DNA of 63,774 nt, counting the filler, from Chthonomonadaceae bacterium (lineage in GTDB: Bacteria; Armatimonadota; Chthonomonadetes; Chthonomonadales; Chthonomonadaceae): assembly GCA_035650735.1 (NCBI GenBank). It is 5 parts of 5 records of this genome, joined end to end, with 100 filler letters (N's around TTAATTAATTAA, not from the genome) between each part and the next. Parts side by side here need not be neighbours in the genome. Positions count along the whole stretch, not along the records: positions 48,448 to 61,254 come from DASRGZ010000074.1; 4 more parts are not named here. One strand, given 5' to 3'. The notes beneath the pieces were generated by a model. That model saw nothing but the letters and a program-made list of their open reading frames with translations. It was not told where the DNA came from and searched no databases. Each line of letters begins with the position of its first letter. Positions within the stretch are counted from its first letter, which is position 1. Positions 353 through 56,274 of this stretch are shown one piece after another. The translations under genes were made by a program, and so were the position numbers.

Positions 353-1894
353 CTAATCTAGCGGAACGACCACGAAGCGGATGTCCTTATCGTGCTGATA
401 AAGGATCTTGACCTGGTCCCCGGATTTCAGGTTGGCCGTGGCAGACTGGAACGCCTGCACCGTCGGCGTCTCCACGTCGTTGATCTTGAGGATAACCTGC
501 CCTTCGCTCAGCTCGTCTATGTCGGCTGCCGCGGAGTTGGGGTCAATGGATTTGATCACGACGCCGGGCGTTTTGGGAGTCACGCCCGCGGCCTCGGCCA
601 GCTTCTGCGTCAGCGGCTGCACTTCGATGCCCAGGCGGGATTTGCTCGGCGCGCGCGGCTTCTCGTTTGTCGGCGGCAGGTCGTTATCCCCGGCCTCGGC
701 CAGCGTCGCCTTGAGAGCCATTTCCTTGCCGTTCCGCACGACGGTTAGATCCACGGTCGTATCCGGGGGCGTCTGGGCGACAATGGTGCGCAGGTCGAGT
801 TCATTCCGTACCGGCTTTTTGTTGATGGCGATCACCACATCGCCCGCGTGCAGCCCGGCTTTGGCTGCCGGGGTCGCCGGGTAGGGTTCCATATCAATCA
901 GCGCGCCCTGGTCCACGTTGAGCGCCGACGCCAGGCGCGGCGTGATGCTGGTGGGACTGATGCCGAGGTAGCCATAGCTGACGTGGCCCTTGGTCATCAA
1001 CTGCGTGATGACGAACTTGGCCGCGTTGATCGGAATGGCGAACCCGATGCCGATGCTGCCGCCGCCCTCGCTCTCAATGGCGGTGTTGATGCCGATGACC
1101 TCCCCGTAGATGTTGCAGAGCGGCCCGCCGGAGTTGCCAGGGTTGATGGCCGCGTCCGTCTGGATCATCTGCGGATAGAAGCGCGGGCGCCCAAGGGCGC
1201 TGAAGTCGCTGATGCGCTGCTGGCGGTAGAGGCTGCTGATGACGCCGACCGAGAGCGAGCCCTCGTAGCGATAGGGGCTGCCGATGGCGATGGCCCAGTG
1301 TCCCACCTTCACCTTGTCGGAGTCGCCCAGGCGCGCGGCGGGGAAGTAGGAAGGCCCATCGAGCTTGATCAGGGCCAGGTCGCTGCGGTAATCGCGCAGC
1401 ACTTTGCCGGTTAATTCGCGTCCATCGTGCAGGCGCACGGTCACTTTATCCGCGCCGCCAACCACGTGGTCGTTGGTGAGCACCCAGCCGTCCTTGGAGA
1501 TAATGACTCCGGAGCCGGTGCCGGTGGCGCGGCGCGTGCCGTTGCGTCCGAAAGGCGCCAGGCCATGGAACTCATTTCCATTGGGCTCGCCGCCGGCGGT
1601 GCGAATGGCCTTGCTAGTATAGATGGTGACCACCGCCGGTTCCACCTCATCCGCGACGGCGCTGAACGCATCCTGCAGATCGGCAAGCCGGGCGACGCTT
1701 GCCCGTGCGTTCTCAAGCCTCGCTTTCTCTTGGGCATGCGCTGACGGCGCTCCTCCTGTCGAGAGGGCCGCTGCCAGGCTCATCACGCCGACCCACCCCC
1801 ACATCGCCCGGCGCTTGCTCGGGATAGCCCTGCCTCTTACGGGCGATGCTGTCGGCATCCGGTTCCCATCGCGCCCTCTCTGTCGGTAGTGCAT
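353..1894 (-). CDS. htrA: HtrA/DegP-family serine protease with two PDZ domains
   Basis: TNDHVV, SDLALIK, TDAAINPGNSGGPL motifs; two PDZ domains; N-terminal hydrophobic signal; AAGGAGGT RBS. Confidence 0.95.
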   Translation of the reverse strand: MHYRQRGRDGNRMPTASPVRGRAIPSKRRAMWGWVGVMSLAAALSTGGAPSAHAQEKARLENARASVARLADLQDAFSAVADEVEPAVVTIYTSKAIRTAGGEPNGNEFHGLAPFGRNGTRRATGTGSGVIISKDGWVLTNDHVVGGADKVTVRLHDGRELTGKVLRDYRSDLALIKLDGPSYFPAARLGDSDKVKVGHWAIAIGSPYRYEGSLSVGVISSLYRQQRISDFSALGRPRFYPQMIQTDAAINPGNSGGPLCNIYGEVIGINTAIESEGGGSIGIGFAIPINAAKFVITQLMTKGHVSYGYLGISPTSITPRLASALNVDQGALIDMEPYPATPAAKAGLHAGDVVIAINKKPVRNELDLRTIVAQTPPDTTVDLTVVRNGKEMALKATLAEAGDNDLPPTNEKPRAPSKSRLGIEVQPLTQKLAEAAGVTPKTPGVVIKSIDPNSAAADIDELSEGQVILKINDVETPTVQAFQSATANLKSGDQVKILYQHDKDIRFVVVPLD

Positions 1895-2134
1895 CTCTTT
1901 GCGACCTCCTTGCCGGTTTGTCCTGGAGACAAACCGCGCAGCAAAACGGTAATCCAGTGTACCAGAAAAGGGAGGGAATGGAAAGGTCCCACCCCTACAG
2001 CCTCATGCAAAATCCAGCCGGAAAAACGGCGCTCGGCTTTTGGGCGGGTAGCGCCGCCTATTTGACGAATGATGGCCACGAAGGTTTACGTAGATTTTTG
2101 CTTCCAGCCAGCCCGTTCTGTTTTGGGTTGTGGC

Positions 2135-2450
2135 CCTCACCCTCTTCCCACTGCAAGGGTTGGGCCTGCAATGGACTGCCAGGGTCGGGCCTGCAACGGT
2201 TCGGCCACTGCTCTAGGGCCGCCGGAGTTACGGCCTCCGGCTCCGCCTAGCGACACCTTGCGACCCCCCTCCGCCTTGCGACATCTAGCGATCCCCAACA
2301 ACAGGGGAGGAGAGAAGCTGGGTCACTCCCTTCCCTTGTAGGGAAGGGGGGCGGGGGGTTAGGTGAGTCACCGAAGGGCGACTTCGTGCTTTTGTTGCTA
2401 CTGCCAGTGTCGGCAGGGTTACGGCCCCTGCCTCCGCCTGGCGAGGCTTT
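2135..2450. repeat. Mosaic REP-like repeat cluster
   Basis: Modules gactgccagggtcgg, cctccgccttgcgac and cccttcccttgtagggaagggg...ggggttaggt shared with other intergenic regions. Confidence 0.75.
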
Positions 2451-2526
2451 CGCCGCCCGAAAAGGAAAAAAGACCCGGCGAGAACGCCGGGTGGAAGGCA
2501 ATCAACTCTCTTGGAAGAAGTACGGA

Positions 2527-3162
2527 TTAGCGCGGGTAAAGCACACTGAGCACAGGATTGGAGCTGCGCAGGTACCGGCGCGGCAACACCCGCTCGCTGG
2601 AAAAAACGACGGGCAGCGGATTGAGCGGCGTATTTCGAGTCCAGATCGGATTAACAACAGGCAGAGGCTGCTCCGATAGCAGATCGGGACTAGCGCCGTT
2701 AGGATAAAGCCCGAAACGCGGGATTTCCGATCCCGATGCCAGGGGCAGCATCGAAATCTGGCTCGTCGGCTGCTGCCAATGGATCTCGTTGGGGGTATCC
2801 ACCATGCGGACCGTCCACAGAATGCCCATGGCGGCCAGCCCGGTCCCAAAAGCGATAACGGGCGGCGGCGGAGCGATCTGCTTCCACCGGGCGCAGAACT
2901 GGCGCAGCCAGGAGGCCGGCCCGCCGCTAGTCGCCTGCGCCTCGGCAGAGACCAATCGCTGCAAAATGAGTCCAGGCAACTCCGGGCGCGGCTCCTGGAT
3001 GCGCATCCCGGCCAGAAGCCGCTTGACCTGCAGCAGGCCCTCATATTCGGCCTGACATTCGGGACAGGCATTCAGATGCAGGTGAATTTGCCGGTGCTCT
3101 ACTCCCGGCAACTCCCCGTCCATATACGCGGACAGAAGATGGCTCACTTTACGACAGTTCAC
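2527..3162 (-). CDS. Zinc-finger (zf-HC2) transmembrane anti-sigma factor
   Basis: C..V..LLSAYMDGEL...HLNACPEC (HxxxCxxC) plus one TM helix; directly downstream of the ECF sigma. Confidence 0.9.
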   Translation of the reverse strand: MNCRKVSHLLSAYMDGELPGVEHRQIHLHLNACPECQAEYEGLLQVKRLLAGMRIQEPRPELPGLILQRLVSAEAQATSGGPASWLRQFCARWKQIAPPPPVIAFGTGLAAMGILWTVRMVDTPNEIHWQQPTSQISMLPLASGSEIPRFGLYPNGASPDLLSEQPLPVVNPIWTRNTPLNPLPVVFSSERVLPRRYLRSSNPVLSVLYPR

Positions 3163-3240
3163 GCTCGATCTCCTGTTTTGTACCCGGCAGCGGATACAGA
3201 ATGATTTCAGAAAGAAGGCAAGAGAATAAGGGCTGTATCA

Positions 3241-3834
3241 TTAGCACGCTTCTTTAGCGCGCTGCATCAGTTGCGCTACTTTCTGACGCAGCAGCTTGCG
3301 CCCGCGATGCAGGCGCGAGCGCACCGTTCCCAGAGAGCAGCTCATCGTTTCGGCGATCTCCTCATAAGACAATCCTTCGATGTCCGCCAGGATAACCGCT
3401 ACCCGGAACTCTTCGGGCAAGGCTTCCAGCGCTCGCTGCAAGTGCTCGTCTAGCGCCTCGCTGAGCAACATCTGCGCCGGGTTGGACTCCAGATCCGGGA
3501 TCTCCAGCAGCACATCGGCGTCGCCGCTCTCGCTGGCGTTGAGCGGTTGATCCAGCGACTGCATCTTATATTTTGGTTTCTTGCGGATTTCGTCAATGAA
3601 CACGCGGGACATGATCCGGTAGAGCCAGTTTTCAAAGGGCATGTCCCGGTTATACCTATCGAAGAAACGATAGGCACGCAGGAACGATTCCTGGGTTAAG
3701 TCCTCGGCGTCGGCATGGTTGCCCGTCATGCGGTAGGCGATATTATACGCCTGCCGATGACAGCGATTCACCAGCGTATCGAACTCTCTGCGATCATTAC
3801 GCAGGACACCGGGGAAGATCCGCACAAGGTCCAT
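3241..3834 (-). CDS. ECF sigma-70 factor (SigE/RpoE-like)
   Basis: DAEDLTQESFLRAY region 2; LSYEEIAETMSCSLGTVRSRLHRGR region 4. Confidence 0.95.
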   Translation of the reverse strand: MDLVRIFPGVLRNDRREFDTLVNRCHRQAYNIAYRMTGNHADAEDLTQESFLRAYRFFDRYNRDMPFENWLYRIMSRVFIDEIRKKPKYKMQSLDQPLNASESGDADVLLEIPDLESNPAQMLLSEALDEHLQRALEALPEEFRVAVILADIEGLSYEEIAETMSCSLGTVRSRLHRGRKLLRQKVAQLMQRAKEAC

Positions 3835-3857
3835 TCGGCTAGCCTCCTACGTTGGCT

Positions 3858-3884
3858 TACGGGCAGGATTTGCGATAAAGTTCC
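3858..3884 (-). promoter_or_regulatory. ECF-type promoter, probably autoregulatory
   Basis: Minus strand GGAACT-N17-CGTA just upstream of the ECF sigma gene. Confidence 0.65.
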
Positions 3885-3940
3885 CGGCGCCAGCCTACTT
3901 TCTTGATAAGAATTCTGATGGTGGCTAACTCGCGCATGGG

Positions 3941-4879
3941 TTAACGGGCGGCCCGCGATACCTGCCGGAGGGCCGGTGCGGGCTGCGGGGCCGCTGCCGA
4001 CGCGATGTTTGCCGCGTGAGCCTGGAGGAATAGATTGGCCGCCAGGCGCTGCCGTTCTGGCAGGTGCTCGATCATCTCATGGATGGTGACAAAGCGATAG
4101 CCTTCGGCGCGGAGGGCTTCGATAATCCGAGGCAGTGCGACCGCGGTGTTGGGATAGTCGTGCAGCAGGATAATGCTGCCGTTTTCCGTGCGGTTGACCG
4201 TGCGATTGACGATGAAATCAATCGTTTCGTTAAAGTTAAAATCGGCCGAGAGGGTATTGCAGCCGACCAGGATGTAGCCCAGGCGCTGCGTCGTGGCGAG
4301 CACGTTTTGATTGTAGCGCATTCCGGGCGGGCGCAGCAGGGAAAGATGCTGGCCGGTGATGCGATAGAAGGTAATATCTACGTCGTTGATCTCGCGGTGG
4401 CGCTTCTGCGGCGATAGGGAGGTCAGGCGCAGGTGGTGGTAGGAGTGGTTCCCGACTTCATGGCCCTCGGCCAGCGTGCGCCGCAGCAGGTCCGGGTTTT
4501 CCGCCATGCGCCTGCCCACGTCGAAGAAGGTCGCGTGGACGCCGTAGCGCTTGAGCGTGTCGAGTATCTGGCCCCGACTCTGGATATGCGGCCCGTCGTC
4601 GAAGGTGAGGGCGACTTCCGGCAGGGAGCGGTTGCCATGAAGCAGGATCGCGCCATTTGGGTCGTAGAGGTCTTCGCCATGCAGGCGGCGCCACCAGTAC
4701 ATCGGGTTCAGCGTCTGGCCCCAGGTCAGCGTGCGGTGCTCGTTATACCAGAAGAGCCCACTGCCGACGAGCAGGAGGGCCAGCAGGCCGAGCGCGCGTC
4801 CAACGCGCGACCGAAGGAGCCGACGGGGCAGCGAATCCCGCGGCGTTGCGGAATCGGTGTTACTCTTGCGCAGAGGCAT
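3941..4879 (-). CDS. Polysaccharide/peptidoglycan deacetylase (CE4/NodB), membrane-anchored
   Basis: ALTFDDGP, HEVGNHSYHH, RPPG, IILLHD motifs; N-terminal TM helix. Confidence 0.92.
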   Translation of the reverse strand: MPLRKSNTDSATPRDSLPRRLLRSRVGRALGLLALLLVGSGLFWYNEHRTLTWGQTLNPMYWWRRLHGEDLYDPNGAILLHGNRSLPEVALTFDDGPHIQSRGQILDTLKRYGVHATFFDVGRRMAENPDLLRRTLAEGHEVGNHSYHHLRLTSLSPQKRHREINDVDITFYRITGQHLSLLRPPGMRYNQNVLATTQRLGYILVGCNTLSADFNFNETIDFIVNRTVNRTENGSIILLHDYPNTAVALPRIIEALRAEGYRFVTIHEMIEHLPERQRLAANLFLQAHAANIASAAAPQPAPALRQVSRAAR

Positions 4880-5021
4880 CTTTTTACCCAGGAGAAATAT
4901 CTGTTTATAATACGCACGCCGCCGCAGGAAAGCTTCCTGTCAGGCCGCGCGCTTCCCGGCAATTTTAGGAAGGGTCTAATGAATTGTAGGCAGACGCTCC
5001 AATCAGGGTAAAGTGGCAAAG

Positions 5022-5051
5022 TTGACAGAATCGCCCTGCCTGGCGTATAAT
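5022..5051 (+). promoter_or_regulatory. Sigma-70 promoter of tRNA-Leu
   Basis: TTGACA-N18-TATAAT 12 nt upstream of the tRNA. Confidence 0.8.
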
Positions 5052-5063
5052 ACGGCGTGCCGC

Positions 5064-5146
5064 GCCGGAGTGGCGGAATGGCAGACGCGGCGGTCTCAAA
5101 AACCGTTAGGGGCGACCCTGTGTGGGTTCGACTCCCACCTCCGGCA
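5064..5146 (+). tRNA. tRNA-Leu(CAA)
   Basis: Acceptor stem gccggag/ctccggc; D-loop ggaatggcagac; anticodon arm gcggt-ctCAAaa-accgt; long variable arm; GGTTCGACTCC T-loop; CCA not encoded. Confidence 0.95.
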
Positions 5147-5215
5147 CGTTTTAAAGAGAAAGACGGAAGGATAAAGAAAAGCCCTGGCTCTGTTCATCCT
5201 TCCGCCTTATTTATT

Positions 5216-5887
5216 TTAAGCTCGCTCTTCGGCGTGGGCGGCCCACAGCAGCCCGCGCGTCATGATGTTGAATGCCTCCGGCTGACGGACGATATCGGCG
5301 TGATGCCCCAGCGAGCTATAGAAGACGCGGCCCTGCCCGTACATCTTCGTCCAGACCACCGGCATATCCACCGGGCCGTTGGTCACATGTGGACCGTCGG
5401 CGGTGGGGAAGCGAGTGACGGCAAGCACCTTGTTGGCCGGGTCCACGTGCATGTAGTACTGCTCTGACTTCACCTGGAAGTCGGACATGCCCCGTGTGAT
5501 GAAGTGATCTCGGTCGGTGATGTGAACGGTGTACTCCACGCCGTCGTTGCCGGGGTGGGCTACCCACTGTCCGCCGGTCATGAACTGCCACTCGGTCGCG
5601 TCTCGGAAGGAGTCGCACATCCCGCCGTGGCACCCGCCGAGACCCACGCCGCCCTTCACCGCTTCCAGCACCGGGTTAAGTTGCTCATTGGTGATCGTGC
5701 CCATCGTCCAGATCGGCACAATCAGGTTGAGCGATTTGAGCTTCTCGGCATCCTTGAACGCATCCAGCGTATCGCGTACCTCTACCTCGAAGCCCTTCTG
5801 CCGCAGCGCCTGATCCAGAATCTCGGCTACCTGCTGCGGCTCGTGGCCGTTCCAACCACCCCAAACGATCAACGCCTTGTATGCCAT
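5216..5887 (-). CDS. ThuA-like domain protein
   Basis: ALIVWGGWNGHEP, GGCHGG, WVAHPG, GQGRVFYSSLGH. Confidence 0.88.
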   Translation of the reverse strand: MAYKALIVWGGWNGHEPQQVAEILDQALRQKGFEVEVRDTLDAFKDAEKLKSLNLIVPIWTMGTITNEQLNPVLEAVKGGVGLGGCHGGMCDSFRDATEWQFMTGGQWVAHPGNDGVEYTVHITDRDHFITRGMSDFQVKSEQYYMHVDPANKVLAVTRFPTADGPHVTNGPVDMPVVWTKMYGQGRVFYSSLGHHADIVRQPEAFNIMTRGLLWAAHAEERA

Positions 5888-53680: not shown

Positions 53681-54082
53681 TTAATGAAGTGATAAGCCTA
53701 ATTTTGCCGCGCACATTTGCTCGGCGCGCTTACAACCACATAATAAAGTGAATATCGTGTCCCGTCGGTCGGCAACGTTGTCGTCGCGGGAGGCCACGAG
53801 CGTCACGTCATGGTGAAGTCAGGCCATGCGAAACCGTTATCCTGCGTTTCGTATGGACAGGCCATGATGGAGACGCTTTTTGTTTTCAACTGAATAGCTT
53901 CCAAATTCAATAGCGATAACTGAATAAGGCTTGAGACAATTGAATACCGCATAGAGCTTCGGACGCGGCAATGTTTGTCGCTCCAGGCAGGCTAAGAAAG
54001 TCTACGCTTAGTCAACTCAAAATCTGTATCTTTGAGACCAACGCACCCAGACCTAAACACCCTGTCAGGAGAGAGAACAACC

Positions 54083-54766
54083 ATGCATCCGATGACTCAA
54101 ACCACCGAAACGACGCACACCCACACCGATCATAACCCCAGTTCCACTCTGTTTGCCAACCATTCCTATGCGCCGGACTCGGCGGGCGAGGCGGCCCTTC
54201 TAGAGCGCTGCAAGCAAGGCGACCAGAGCGCCTGGGATACTCTGATCCGTCGTTACGAGAAGTCGGTCTACAAGTTCGCTTACTCCCTGTGCCGCAACCA
54301 TGAAGAGGCCGGCGATATCGCCGGGCAGGTCTTCCTGCGGCTTTACCAGAACCTGCACACCTTCCGCAACGAGGCCAGCTTTACCTCCTGGCTGTTCCGC
54401 ATCGTGCGCAACACCTATCTGGACCTGTGCGTTCGGCCCGCCCATCGCAGCCATCTGAGCCTGGATGCCAATCCCAACAACGACGGCGAGCCGTTCGCCG
54501 GCCGCGATATCCTCGATCCGTCGCCGACGCCCGAGGCCCGCTGCATGGAGCGCGAGACGGCTCAACTGCTGGCCAAGGCGATCCGGCACCTGCCGGCCTA
54601 TCAGCGCCAGGTGCTGCGGATGTATCACAGCGAAGGCAAGTCCTATGAAGAGATCGCGGATGCGACCGGCCTGTCCATCGGCACCGTCAAGTCGCGCCTG
54701 AATCGCGCGCGCAACATGCTGCGCGAGCGCCTGGCCCCGTATCAGGAAGCGCTCATGGCGGCCTAA
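54083..54766 (+). CDS. ECF sigma-70 factor (no adjacent anti-sigma)
   Basis: GDQSAWDTL, EASFTSWLFRIVRN, SYEEIADATGLSIGTVKSRLNRAR. Confidence 0.93.
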   Translation: MHPMTQTTETTHTHTDHNPSSTLFANHSYAPDSAGEAALLERCKQGDQSAWDTLIRRYEKSVYKFAYSLCRNHEEAGDIAGQVFLRLYQNLHTFRNEASFTSWLFRIVRNTYLDLCVRPAHRSHLSLDANPNNDGEPFAGRDILDPSPTPEARCMERETAQLLAKAIRHLPAYQRQVLRMYHSEGKSYEEIADATGLSIGTVKSRLNRARNMLRERLAPYQEALMAA

Positions 54767-54979
54767 GCCTTCAGGGAGTTCGTAGCACACGCTTTACCGT
54801 GCAGAAAGCCGCGAGGCAGGAGTATTTCCCCTCGCGGCTTTCCCCTTGGCAAGTTGCCCCTGCCTCCTTCTGCATCAAACCCTCTACCCTTCCTGACTTC
54901 TCGCCTCATGCCGGGCCGTGCTTTCAGGCATCCCTTATTGTTCACTCAAGACCAGGCCATGATATAATGAGGGTACTTA

Positions 54980-55082
54980 ACTCAAGTTGCTACCTTGCCT
55001 CTTCGAGAAGGCAAACGGTGATGCAAAAGCCGGTTTCCAGAGCGATTCTCTCTCAAACGTGTTCCTAGGTAGCAACTTGGGT
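54980..55082. mobile_element. MITE family A, copy 3
   Basis: Same 103-bp sequence; TSD tactta; inserted just after TGATATAAT (54960-54968). Confidence 0.92.
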
Positions 55083-55123
55083 TACTTATTCAACTGGTCA
55101 CAACACGAGGTCGTAGGAAGCAT

Positions 55124-55498
55124 ATGGAAGGCAAACACTGGATGCTGTGGGACGGCGATTGAGGACTATGACGCCGTGTCGCCGCCTGGGTCAGGCGCAA
55201 AGACAAGCAGCATAAGTTTCTGGTCGTGCCCTATCAGGAGGCGCCGTCTCCGCCGATGACGCCCGCGCTCTATGAAGCCTGCAAGCGCGCCGTCCACGTC
55301 ATCAAGAGCGATGGCACGGTGCTGCGGGCGGGACGGGCGTCGCTGTTCGTGCTGGAGCAGATCGGCTGGGGCTGGGCAGCTCGCCTGCTGATGCTGCCGC
55401 CGTTTATCTGGGCGGTGGAACTGGGCTATGCCCTGGTCGCCCGGAACCGCTCGTTTTTCGCGCGCTTCCTGTTCACGAAGGAGCAGAGAGGACAATGA
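55124..55498 (+). CDS. DCC/DUF393 thiol-disulfide oxidoreductase, candidate double selenoprotein (UxxU), 124 aa
   Basis: ATG 55124 (AGGAAG RBS) reads MEGKHWMLWDGD-TGA-GL-TGA-RRVAAWVRRKDKQHKFLVVPYQ..., in frame with ORF 55226-55498; TGAs at 55160 and 55169 occupy both Cys positions of DxxCxxC. Confidence 0.85.
55177..55205 (+). promoter_or_regulatory. Candidate bacterial SECIS element
   Basis: Upper stem cgcctg-GGT-caggcg (55183-55197) starting 11 nt after the second TGA; lower stem tgtc/gaca. Confidence 0.7.
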
Positions 55499-56274
55499 CC
55501 GCGCCGCCTCCAGCAGACGCCATTGATCGCGTGGCTCCCACGCGGCGGCCTCCCGGCAGAACAGCCATGTGGCAGCGCTGGGCGGACCTGCTTTTTTTGC
55601 ATTGGGCCGTCCCGCCTGACCGGCTGCGCGCCCTGCTGCCGCCCGGACTGGAGCTGGACACGCTCGAGGGCAAAGCCTACGTCGGCCTGGTGCCCTTCAC
55701 GATGACCGGCGTACGTCCGGTCTGGGCGCCGCCATGGGCGCCGCTTTCCAACTTCCATGAGACCAACGTGCGGACGTATGTGCATCGTGAGGGCCGCGAC
55801 CCGGGCGTCTGGTTTTTCAGCCTGGACGCCTCCAACTCGATTGCCGTCCGGATTGCCCGCGCCCTCTGGAGATTGCCTTATCATTACGCCCGGATGAGCC
55901 TGATCCGGGAGAGCGATGGGACCGCACAGGGAAATGGCTACCCGTGCGTGCGGTACTGCACCGAGCGGCTCTGGCCCGGTCCGCTGCCCGCCTCTTGCCG
56001 GGTTCGCTACGGCCCCTGCGGCCCGGCAGCCCCCGCCGCCGTCGGCACGCTCGAACACTTTCTCGTCGAGCGCTATATCCTCTACGCCTACGCGCGCGGT
56101 CGGCTCTATTCCGGGCGCGTCCACCACCGGCCCTATCCTTTGCAGCCTGCCGCCTGCGACTCGCTGGAGGAGAACCTGATCGCGGCTGCCGGGATTAACC
56201 GTCCCGACGAGGCTCCACTGGCGCATTACGCCAGCGAGGTATGCGTCCGTATCTTCCCGCTGCGGCGCGTGTAG
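55495..56274 (+). CDS. DUF2071/YqjF family protein
   Basis: MWQRWADLLFLHW, LELDT, VGLVPF, FHETNVRTYV, PGVWFFSLDA, FLVERY, HHRPYPLQ. Confidence 0.9.
   Translation: MTAPPPADAIDRVAPTRRPPGRTAMWQRWADLLFLHWAVPPDRLRALLPPGLELDTLEGKAYVGLVPFTMTGVRPVWAPPWAPLSNFHETNVRTYVHREGRDPGVWFFSLDASNSIAVRIARALWRLPYHYARMSLIRESDGTAQGNGYPCVRYCTERLWPGPLPASCRVRYGPCGPAAPAAVGTLEHFLVERYILYAYARGRLYSGRVHHRPYPLQPAACDSLEENLIAAAGINRPDEAPLAHYASEVCVRIFPLRRV

Follow-up and report, generated by a model that had tools for sequence, protein, structure and literature searches.

A probable double-selenocysteine (UxxU) oxidoreductase of the DCC/DUF393 family encoded in the genome of a Chthonomonadaceae bacterium

Introduction

More than 110 bacterial selenoprotein families are known, and only a handful of them have two adjacent selenocysteines. 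Table 1 of a May 2026 review comprises 119 prokaryotic selenoprotein families or subfamilies and gives a UxxU motif for three of them, a Prx-like thiol:disulfide oxidoreductase (PF00578), a metal-binding/mercuric-reductase-like protein (NF041115) and an FmdB-family protein (TIGR02605) (PMC13188914), to which a later paper of 2026 adds the UXXU group 4 [NiFeSe] hydrogenases (PMC13582414). The motif is thus as rare in bacteria as was assumed in the original prediction of the gene described here, a member of the DCC family. As far as the available text of these sources goes, the catalogued bacterial UxxU proteins and the hydrogenases resemble this gene in having two UGA codons with two sense codons between them, in the proposal of one downstream SECIS for both, and in CxxU and UxxU relatives that have the SECIS in common. 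Unlike the catalogued proteins, to which the DCC family is unrelated, the DCC proteins include CxxC, CxxU, UxxC and UxxU forms in one orthologous group, and in the hydrogenases the motif is described as binding nickel and not as the redox pair that is proposed for DCC. Selenoprotein L likewise has a UxxU motif, which forms a diselenide, in a thioredoxin-fold-type redox protein, and the likeness lies in the motif and in a possible mode of action; it differs from the DCC gene in being eukaryotic, in its 3'-UTR SECIS and in belonging to another family.

The closest relatives of the gene itself are the cysteine-containing DCC1-like/DUF393 proteins (PF04134), such as Bacillus subtilis YuxK and Arabidopsis DCC1, which belong to the same HMM family, are of the same length and have D-x-x-C-x-x-C at the same N-terminal position, and which share with the protein studied here the blocks SPPMTP, LRAGRA and NR..F. 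According to a review, Arabidopsis DCC1 is of the thioredoxin type, with a DxxCxxC motif, and its substrate for reduction is a subunit of complex I (PMC7598583). In contrast to these proteins, the present gene has UGA at both redox cysteines, followed by a SECIS-like hairpin. DCC, DUF393 and PF04134 are absent from Table 1 and from the searched text of PMC13188914; a full-text search of the literature found no paper tying DUF393 to a selenoprotein or PF04134 to selenocysteine, and among the listed papers on YuxK, DUF393 or DCC1-like proteins no selenium link was found by title and abstract, a scope that covers the partly available literature and not RefSeq or the supplements of surveys. DCC is therefore very probably a further thiol-oxidoreductase family with selenocysteine (Sec) forms, uncatalogued in that table and unusual for its UxxU centre and for its four Cys/Sec states.

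The hairpin resembles bacterial SECIS elements of the Escherichia coli fdhF type in lying inside the coding sequence, soon after the UGA, and in having a G at the first or second loop position; the spacing of the minimal fdhF element also resembles the 11 nt that part it from the second UGA. A G at that loop position belongs to the bacterial SECIS consensus according to the available text of PMC13582414. In comparison with elements such as that of fdhF, the DCC hairpin is very short, with 6-8 bp and, should the G-C closing pair form, a loop of 3 nt; it also appears to serve at two distances from a UGA, 11 and 20 nt.

Results

The reading frame and its two in-frame TGA codons

The window, that is, the whole stretch of 63,774 nucleotides that was analysed, is a chain of contigs parted by runs of N, in which the DCC locus corresponds to G000:C74:6677-7048. 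The following features were assigned to it:

55115 to 55120, plus strand: Shine-Dalgarno-like AGGAAG, 3 nt 5' of the ATG, read from the sequence
55124 to 55498, plus strand: full DCC1-like/DUF393 coding sequence, 124 codons plus terminal TGA (translation, PF04134, orthologue alignment)
55160 to 55162, plus strand: UGA-1, predicted Sec13, first position of the CxxC-type motif, aligned with an invariant Cys13
55169 to 55171, plus strand: UGA-2, predicted Sec16, second position of the CxxC-type motif, aligned with an invariant Cys16
55183 to 55197, plus strand: SECIS-like hairpin CGCCUG-GGU-CAGGCG, within the codons for A-A-W-V-R-R, with Sec-specific pairing
55495 to 56274, plus strand: DUF2071 (COG2071) gene (PF09844, E 3e-74), whose start overlaps the DCC stop (ATGA)

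The frame opens with the ATG at 55124-55126, preceded by a putative ribosome-binding site as first noticed, and ends with the TGA at 55496-55498. AGGAAG alone is weak support for this start, with which the N-termini of homologues agree (e.g., MDGKTWILWDG in P0003). Read with TGA as U, the frame gives MEGKHWMLWDGDUGLURRVAAWVRRKD... over 124 residues with no other internal stop, and the DxxCxxC motif becomes D10-G-D-U13-G-L-U16, both cysteines being replaced by U. Translation and alignment thus bear out that the only in-frame stops are the TGAs at 55160 and 55169 and that they fall on the cysteines of this motif, at columns that are invariant in 35 Cys homologues. In a six-frame search of relatives, orthologues align across both stops over residues 1-124.

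As had been anticipated, standard gene callers shorten the gene. The mechanical ORF list has only a 90-aa remnant (55226-55498, from GTG 55226), and the entry in the public protein collection (P0007) is the same shortened product, both beginning after the TGAs. About 11 of the best 120 protein clusters are N-truncated calls that start with M-A/V-A-W-V-R-R right after the second TGA, one of which (P0045) is the product called at the locus of another genome, G053; current annotation therefore misses Sec-type DCC genes systematically.

The letters themselves were compared with Logan contigs of the runs X1, X2 and X3, each from a different study, some of which may be the source of the assembly itself, and from 55056/55060 to 55650 there were no differences and no gaps, at a word depth of about 8-12 over the DCC locus. 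The occurrence of the same TGAs in unrelated assemblies is a more independent argument for the letters than these run contigs.

Family membership and predicted fold

When U is replaced by C, residues 8-111 of the protein match the PF04134 DCC1-like family at E 3.1e-16 with 61 bits, the cut-off being 27.8, and a six-frame PF04134 search with the stops left in still gave 40.6 bits and the flag "2 TGA"; by this six-frame family search it is the only DCC gene in the genome. No model of NCBIfam release 20 matched the protein, nor did any entry in a PDB sequence-profile search at E up to 1.

An AlphaFold2 model built from 36 sequences (mean pLDDT 81.9) places beta1 at residues 5-9 and U13-x-x-U16 at the lead into a helix at 14-26, with U13 just ahead of the helix, in a predicted core of beta-alpha-beta-alpha-beta-beta-alpha, which is the glutaredoxin/thioredoxin order, followed by two C-terminal helices. 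The leading structural matches to the model are all thioredoxin-fold proteins with weak scores, the best Foldseek match being mycoredoxin-1 (Mrx1; E 0.028) and the VIA matches reaching Z 6.1 (GST N-domains). The model is consistent with a thioredoxin-like fold and does not prove it. In three genomes of the comparison (G050, G052 and G038; loci L025, L029 and L051) the DCC match lies inside open frames of 580-671 aa, so that it may form part of a larger fusion protein there; an HTTM-DCC1-like fusion is mentioned in the available part of a bioRxiv preprint.

Selenocysteine machinery and the use of TGA in the genome

With 224 contigs, the assembly reaches a completeness of 97.6%, and the search for selA, selB, selD and tRNA-Sec(UCA) suggested in the original prediction found all of them, so that selA, selB, selC and selD occur in one genome. 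There is a single tRNA-SeC(UCA) of 98 nt, with discriminator G73 followed by CCA (71.7 bits against the Rfam cut-off of 47), SelA (453 bits) and SelB have no internal stop, and the SelD gene, which adjoins the tRNA-Sec gene, has one in-frame TGA. At G000:C198:18921-21512 (L001, L019) the tRNA-Sec gene and the selenocysteine-containing selD lie side by side, and the SECIS candidate of selD is an 8-bp hairpin with a GUU loop that starts 25 nt 3' of its UGA. The presence of tRNA-Sec, SelA, SelB and a TGA-containing SelD indicates that selenocysteine decoding is in use in this organism. Of the 61 genomes of the order that were searched, that of the window included, 53 have SelB; the sampled order thus uses selenium widely, and the Sec trait by itself does not discriminate. 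Among genomes with Sec forms of DCC, SelB was found in G000, G016, G019 and G053 and in four of five further ones, the fifth being a 63% complete genome, and tRNA-Sec in all five, so that every Sec-form genome tested has the Sec machinery except the least complete one.

A genome-wide recoding of TGA was considered and ruled out, as had been argued from the start, because TGA ends 849 of the 2517 open frames of at least 400 codons (about a third) and SelA and SelB are uninterrupted; the DCC gene itself ends with TGA. It is improbable that one or both UGAs are read as cysteine by a SelB-dependent tRNA of the selC* or tRNA-ReC type, giving a CxxC, CxxU or UxxC product. According to the accessible text of PMC13582414, such tRNAs occur in five of five Armatimonadota genomes with UXXU hydrogenases, and the organism of the window belongs to the same phylum; moreover, the SECIS and SelB needs of this reading are identical to those of selenocysteine, so that sequence evidence cannot separate the two. 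Against it stand the tRNA genes themselves: among the 50 tRNAs identified by ARAGORN there is a single tRNA-SeC(tca), which has G73, and a single tRNA-Cys(gca), which is of the ordinary kind and 75 nt long, and the other RF01852 matches at E up to 0.001 were all tRNAs for Ser, Leu or Tyr. In the 224 contigs ARAGORN and RF01852 thus revealed no further selC-like tRNA that had Cys identity, and no second selC-like tRNA was seen in five other Sec-form genomes either. These are general tRNA models and the assembly is fragmented, so the result only lowers the probability of cysteine insertion, and we favour selenocysteine.

Orthologues with CxxC, CxxU, UxxC and UxxU

Relatives were collected by a six-frame search of the genome of the window and 60 others, of which 34 of 61 matched; 30 loci were fetched and 28 classed by motif pattern, giving three UxxU, one CxxU and 24 CxxC loci, while two loci with no in-frame stop (L032, L049) fell outside the motif classes. 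Of the other loci and genomes compared, L114 and G253 (one TAA) were also left unclassed. The UxxU forms are those of the window, of G019 (another genus) and of G053 (another family), the CxxU form is that of G016, and the CxxC forms include that of a congener (G001) with 74% identity. In a scan of species-representative MAGs with the query's own peptides, which favours close relatives, seven of eight loci were UxxU (TGA/TGA), with the labels Chthonomonadaceae, Myxococcota, Caldilineaceae (two), Chloroflexi, Dehalococcoidia and, doubtfully, Enterobacteriaceae. Among the best 80 metagenome matches to this query, 79 were classed, as 27 UxxU, five CxxU and 47 CxxC, so that Sec forms make up 32 of 79 even with one of the three search patterns demanding Cys at both sites and hence biasing the scan against them; the runs that contain the DCC locus of the window were labelled soil or mine. 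An unselected estimate comes from an evenly sampled set of 401 genomes of the phylum, of which 74 matched at E up to 1e-15 and nine, on inspection of the flagged loci, have Sec forms: four UxxU (G000, G053, G398, G305), four CxxU (G016, G093, G311, G117) and the sole UxxC form (G202, locus L145). All the combinations proposed for orthologues, TGA/TGA, TGA/TGY and TGY/TGY, were therefore encountered, and TGY/TGA in addition.

Counted as distinct sequences, the UGA-1 site is TGA in 29 UxxU forms and one UxxC form (L145) and the UGA-2 site in 35 (29 UxxU and six CxxU), and in the sets compared a stop at the two Cys columns is always TGA, never TAA or TAG. That the same two codons are TGA in 29 distinct UxxU sequences is more than chance would give, in keeping with the view that two accidental nonsense mutations were an unlikely origin. 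The same data contradict the idea that the gene is a pseudogene, or that only the 90-aa frame from GTG 55226, without a redox motif, is made. This idea, which we consider very unlikely, can draw on the fact that only shortened products are annotated, here (P0007) and in related contigs (the N-truncated clusters mentioned above). It is at odds with the peptide before and between the TGAs, which is kept as HW.LWDG.UG[FL]U in dozens of lineages, with the restriction of the stops to TGA and to the two Cys columns, with the maintenance of a Sec-specific RNA hairpin, and with the different look of a truly decayed copy. That copy (L148, G363:C2), which is probably a pseudogene by its sequence, has both cysteines intact and a TGA and a TAA at unrelated positions, in contrast to the DCC gene of the window.

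A protein tree of 104 rows and 119 columns was poorly resolved; the Sec forms cluster in it and are not one clade, with 12 changes of Cys/Sec state against a mean of 31.7 after shuffling. No order of Cys/Sec events was drawn from this tree, because it was built with the hairpin-encoding columns left in.

The SECIS-like hairpin

The original prediction expected a SECIS to follow the TGAs, and a SECIS-like hairpin specific to the Sec forms was found, beginning 20 nt after UGA-1 and 11 nt after UGA-2. When 115 loci were pooled into 102 distinct 66-nt stretches (35 Sec, 67 Cys), contiguous pairs numbered 6-8 in all 35 Sec sequences (29 UxxU, six CxxU) and 0-3 in all 67 Cys sequences. Each of the six core pairs is present in all 35 Sec forms (210 of 210 cells), the loop is GGU, GAU or GGC, and the copy in the window has 6 bp and overlaps conserved codons. 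Changes that keep the core pairs comprise one C-G to U-A double change (L107), two G-U and one U-G, and the outer pair 23-39 occurs as C-G, U-G and U-A. Covariation was not significant (145 of 500 shuffles reached the observed score) because the hairpin hardly varies, and the structural argument accordingly rests on the contrast between Sec and Cys forms and on codon choice. In the 3' arm the Arg codon is AGG or AGA in 34/34 Sec forms versus 0/15 Cys forms with the same residue, all of which use CGN; the Val codon is GTC in 32/32 Sec versus 8/24 same-residue Cys forms, and the Ala codon GCC in 34/34 versus 9/20. Cys forms with the same AAWVRR peptide (G050, G052) use other codons and have lost the hairpin. 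A SECIS would be expected to leave just this trace, selection at synonymous positions that is confined to genes with a preceding UGA.

The local fold of the whole region is not unusual (z -1.0), and an Rfam search of 54900-55350 at E up to 1 gave no match; we know of no bacterial SECIS model in Rfam. Among six further Sec forms of the phylum sample the common hairpin is present in three (L141, L143, L145), a shifted 7-bp variant with a 5-nt loop occurs in L142, and L144 folds ambiguously, unlike the common hairpin. The sixth, the CxxU form L146 (G117:C188), is without the common hairpin and has another one of 8 bp with a GGA loop about 39 nt after its UGA; this locus may have changed from Cys to Sec independently, or it may be in decay.

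CxxU and UxxU forms have an identical hairpin element. The same hairpin follows the single UGA of the UxxC form L145 at a distance of 20 nt, which suggests that the 20-nt spacing is used alone in nature. These observations bear on whether only UGA-2, at 11 nt, is decoded efficiently, with UGA-1 mostly terminating or read by a near-cognate tRNA and UxxU a minor product. The 11-nt spacing matches the fdhF geometry, and CxxU is the commoner single-Sec state, with six distinct sequences and three more in the phylum sample versus one UxxC. UxxU is nevertheless the most common Sec state (29 distinct sequences), which could hardly persist if translation mostly ended at UGA-1, the UxxC form depends on UGA-1 alone with the same hairpin, and SelD in this genome uses a spacing of 25 nt. 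Decoding of UGA-2 only is in our judgement a poor prospect beside the decoding of both UGAs, and from the spacings of 11, 20 and 25 nt (the last in selD) the SelB of this lineage appears to work across at least 11 to 25 nt.

Gene neighbourhood

In 24 of the 115 DCC loci the flanking sequence, 3 kb at most in total, includes a DUF2071 homologue. These loci come mainly from the family of the window's organism and comprise both Cys and Sec forms, and wherever coordinates were checked the homologue starts just after the DCC gene. This distribution makes a lineage-specific operon likely, and to judge by gene order DCC and DUF2071 probably form one.

Positions 54974-55093, just upstream of the DCC gene, are occupied by a repeat some 120 bp long that ends in inverted arms of 18 nt (TAACTCAAGTTGCTACCT / AGGTAGCAACTTGGGTTA). 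The genome has at least 40 near-identical copies of this repeat, several at contig ends; its word depth in the run contigs is 400-5400, against 8-12 in the flanks. It has no Rfam match, and it resembles a MITE or REP element that would have broken up the assembly. The repeat separates the DCC gene from an upstream gene on the plus strand for an ECF-type sigma-70 factor (regions 2 and 4; 54032-54766).

Discussion

We consider it highly probable that the gene at 55124-55498 encodes a double-selenocysteine oxidoreductase of the DCC family. The reading first proposed, a 124-aa UxxU selenoprotein, has gained support from the selenocysteine machinery of the genome, the states of the orthologues, the run assemblies, in which the TGAs were checked and the letters proved identical in X1, X2 and X3, and the Sec-specific hairpin. 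Comparative evidence points to selenium insertion at both UGA codons, which would be read as selenocysteine by SelB with Sec-tRNA(Sec), and to a single SECIS serving both, the short GC-rich hairpin with its GGU loop being the putative site that recruits SelB for each of them. The same tentative conclusion, one SECIS for two UGAs, is reached for its own family in the available text of the paper on the UXXU hydrogenases (PMC13582414).

The predicted product is a DCC1-like thioredoxin-fold oxidoreductase of 124 residues with U13-G-L-U16 as its redox motif. When reduced, the protein would have two selenols at the N-terminus of helix 1, and when oxidised it would form an intramolecular diselenide. 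A UxxU pair should form a diselenide with a potential much lower than that of a disulfide and with faster exchange; the protein may function as a fast exchanger of the dithiol/disulfide type with a low redox potential. The product of the adjoining, presumably co-transcribed DUF2071 gene is a candidate partner with which it would probably act jointly.

Beyond this locus, the DCC/DUF393 proteins probably constitute an uncatalogued selenoprotein family, represented in Armatimonadota, Chloroflexota and Myxococcota MAGs and in metagenomes, whose main Sec state would be a UxxU diselenide centre and in which a single minimal SECIS of 6-8 bp would serve two UGAs six nt apart (at 11 and 20 nt). The Sec-type protein is small and abundant, as its share of the best metagenome matches (32/79) and of the matching genomes of the phylum (9/74) indicates, and its annotation as a shortened fragment makes the redox centre invisible in databases, for which a model of Sec-type DCC proteins would offer a correction. 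The four states of the family are a natural series in which the effect of each Cys-to-Sec replacement on redox potential and kinetics could be followed, and the gene is a compact test case for the decoding of two UGAs with one SECIS. If the proposed reading is true, the family would be a ready system for studying the reloading of SelB on a single SECIS and what a redox protein gains from a diselenide.
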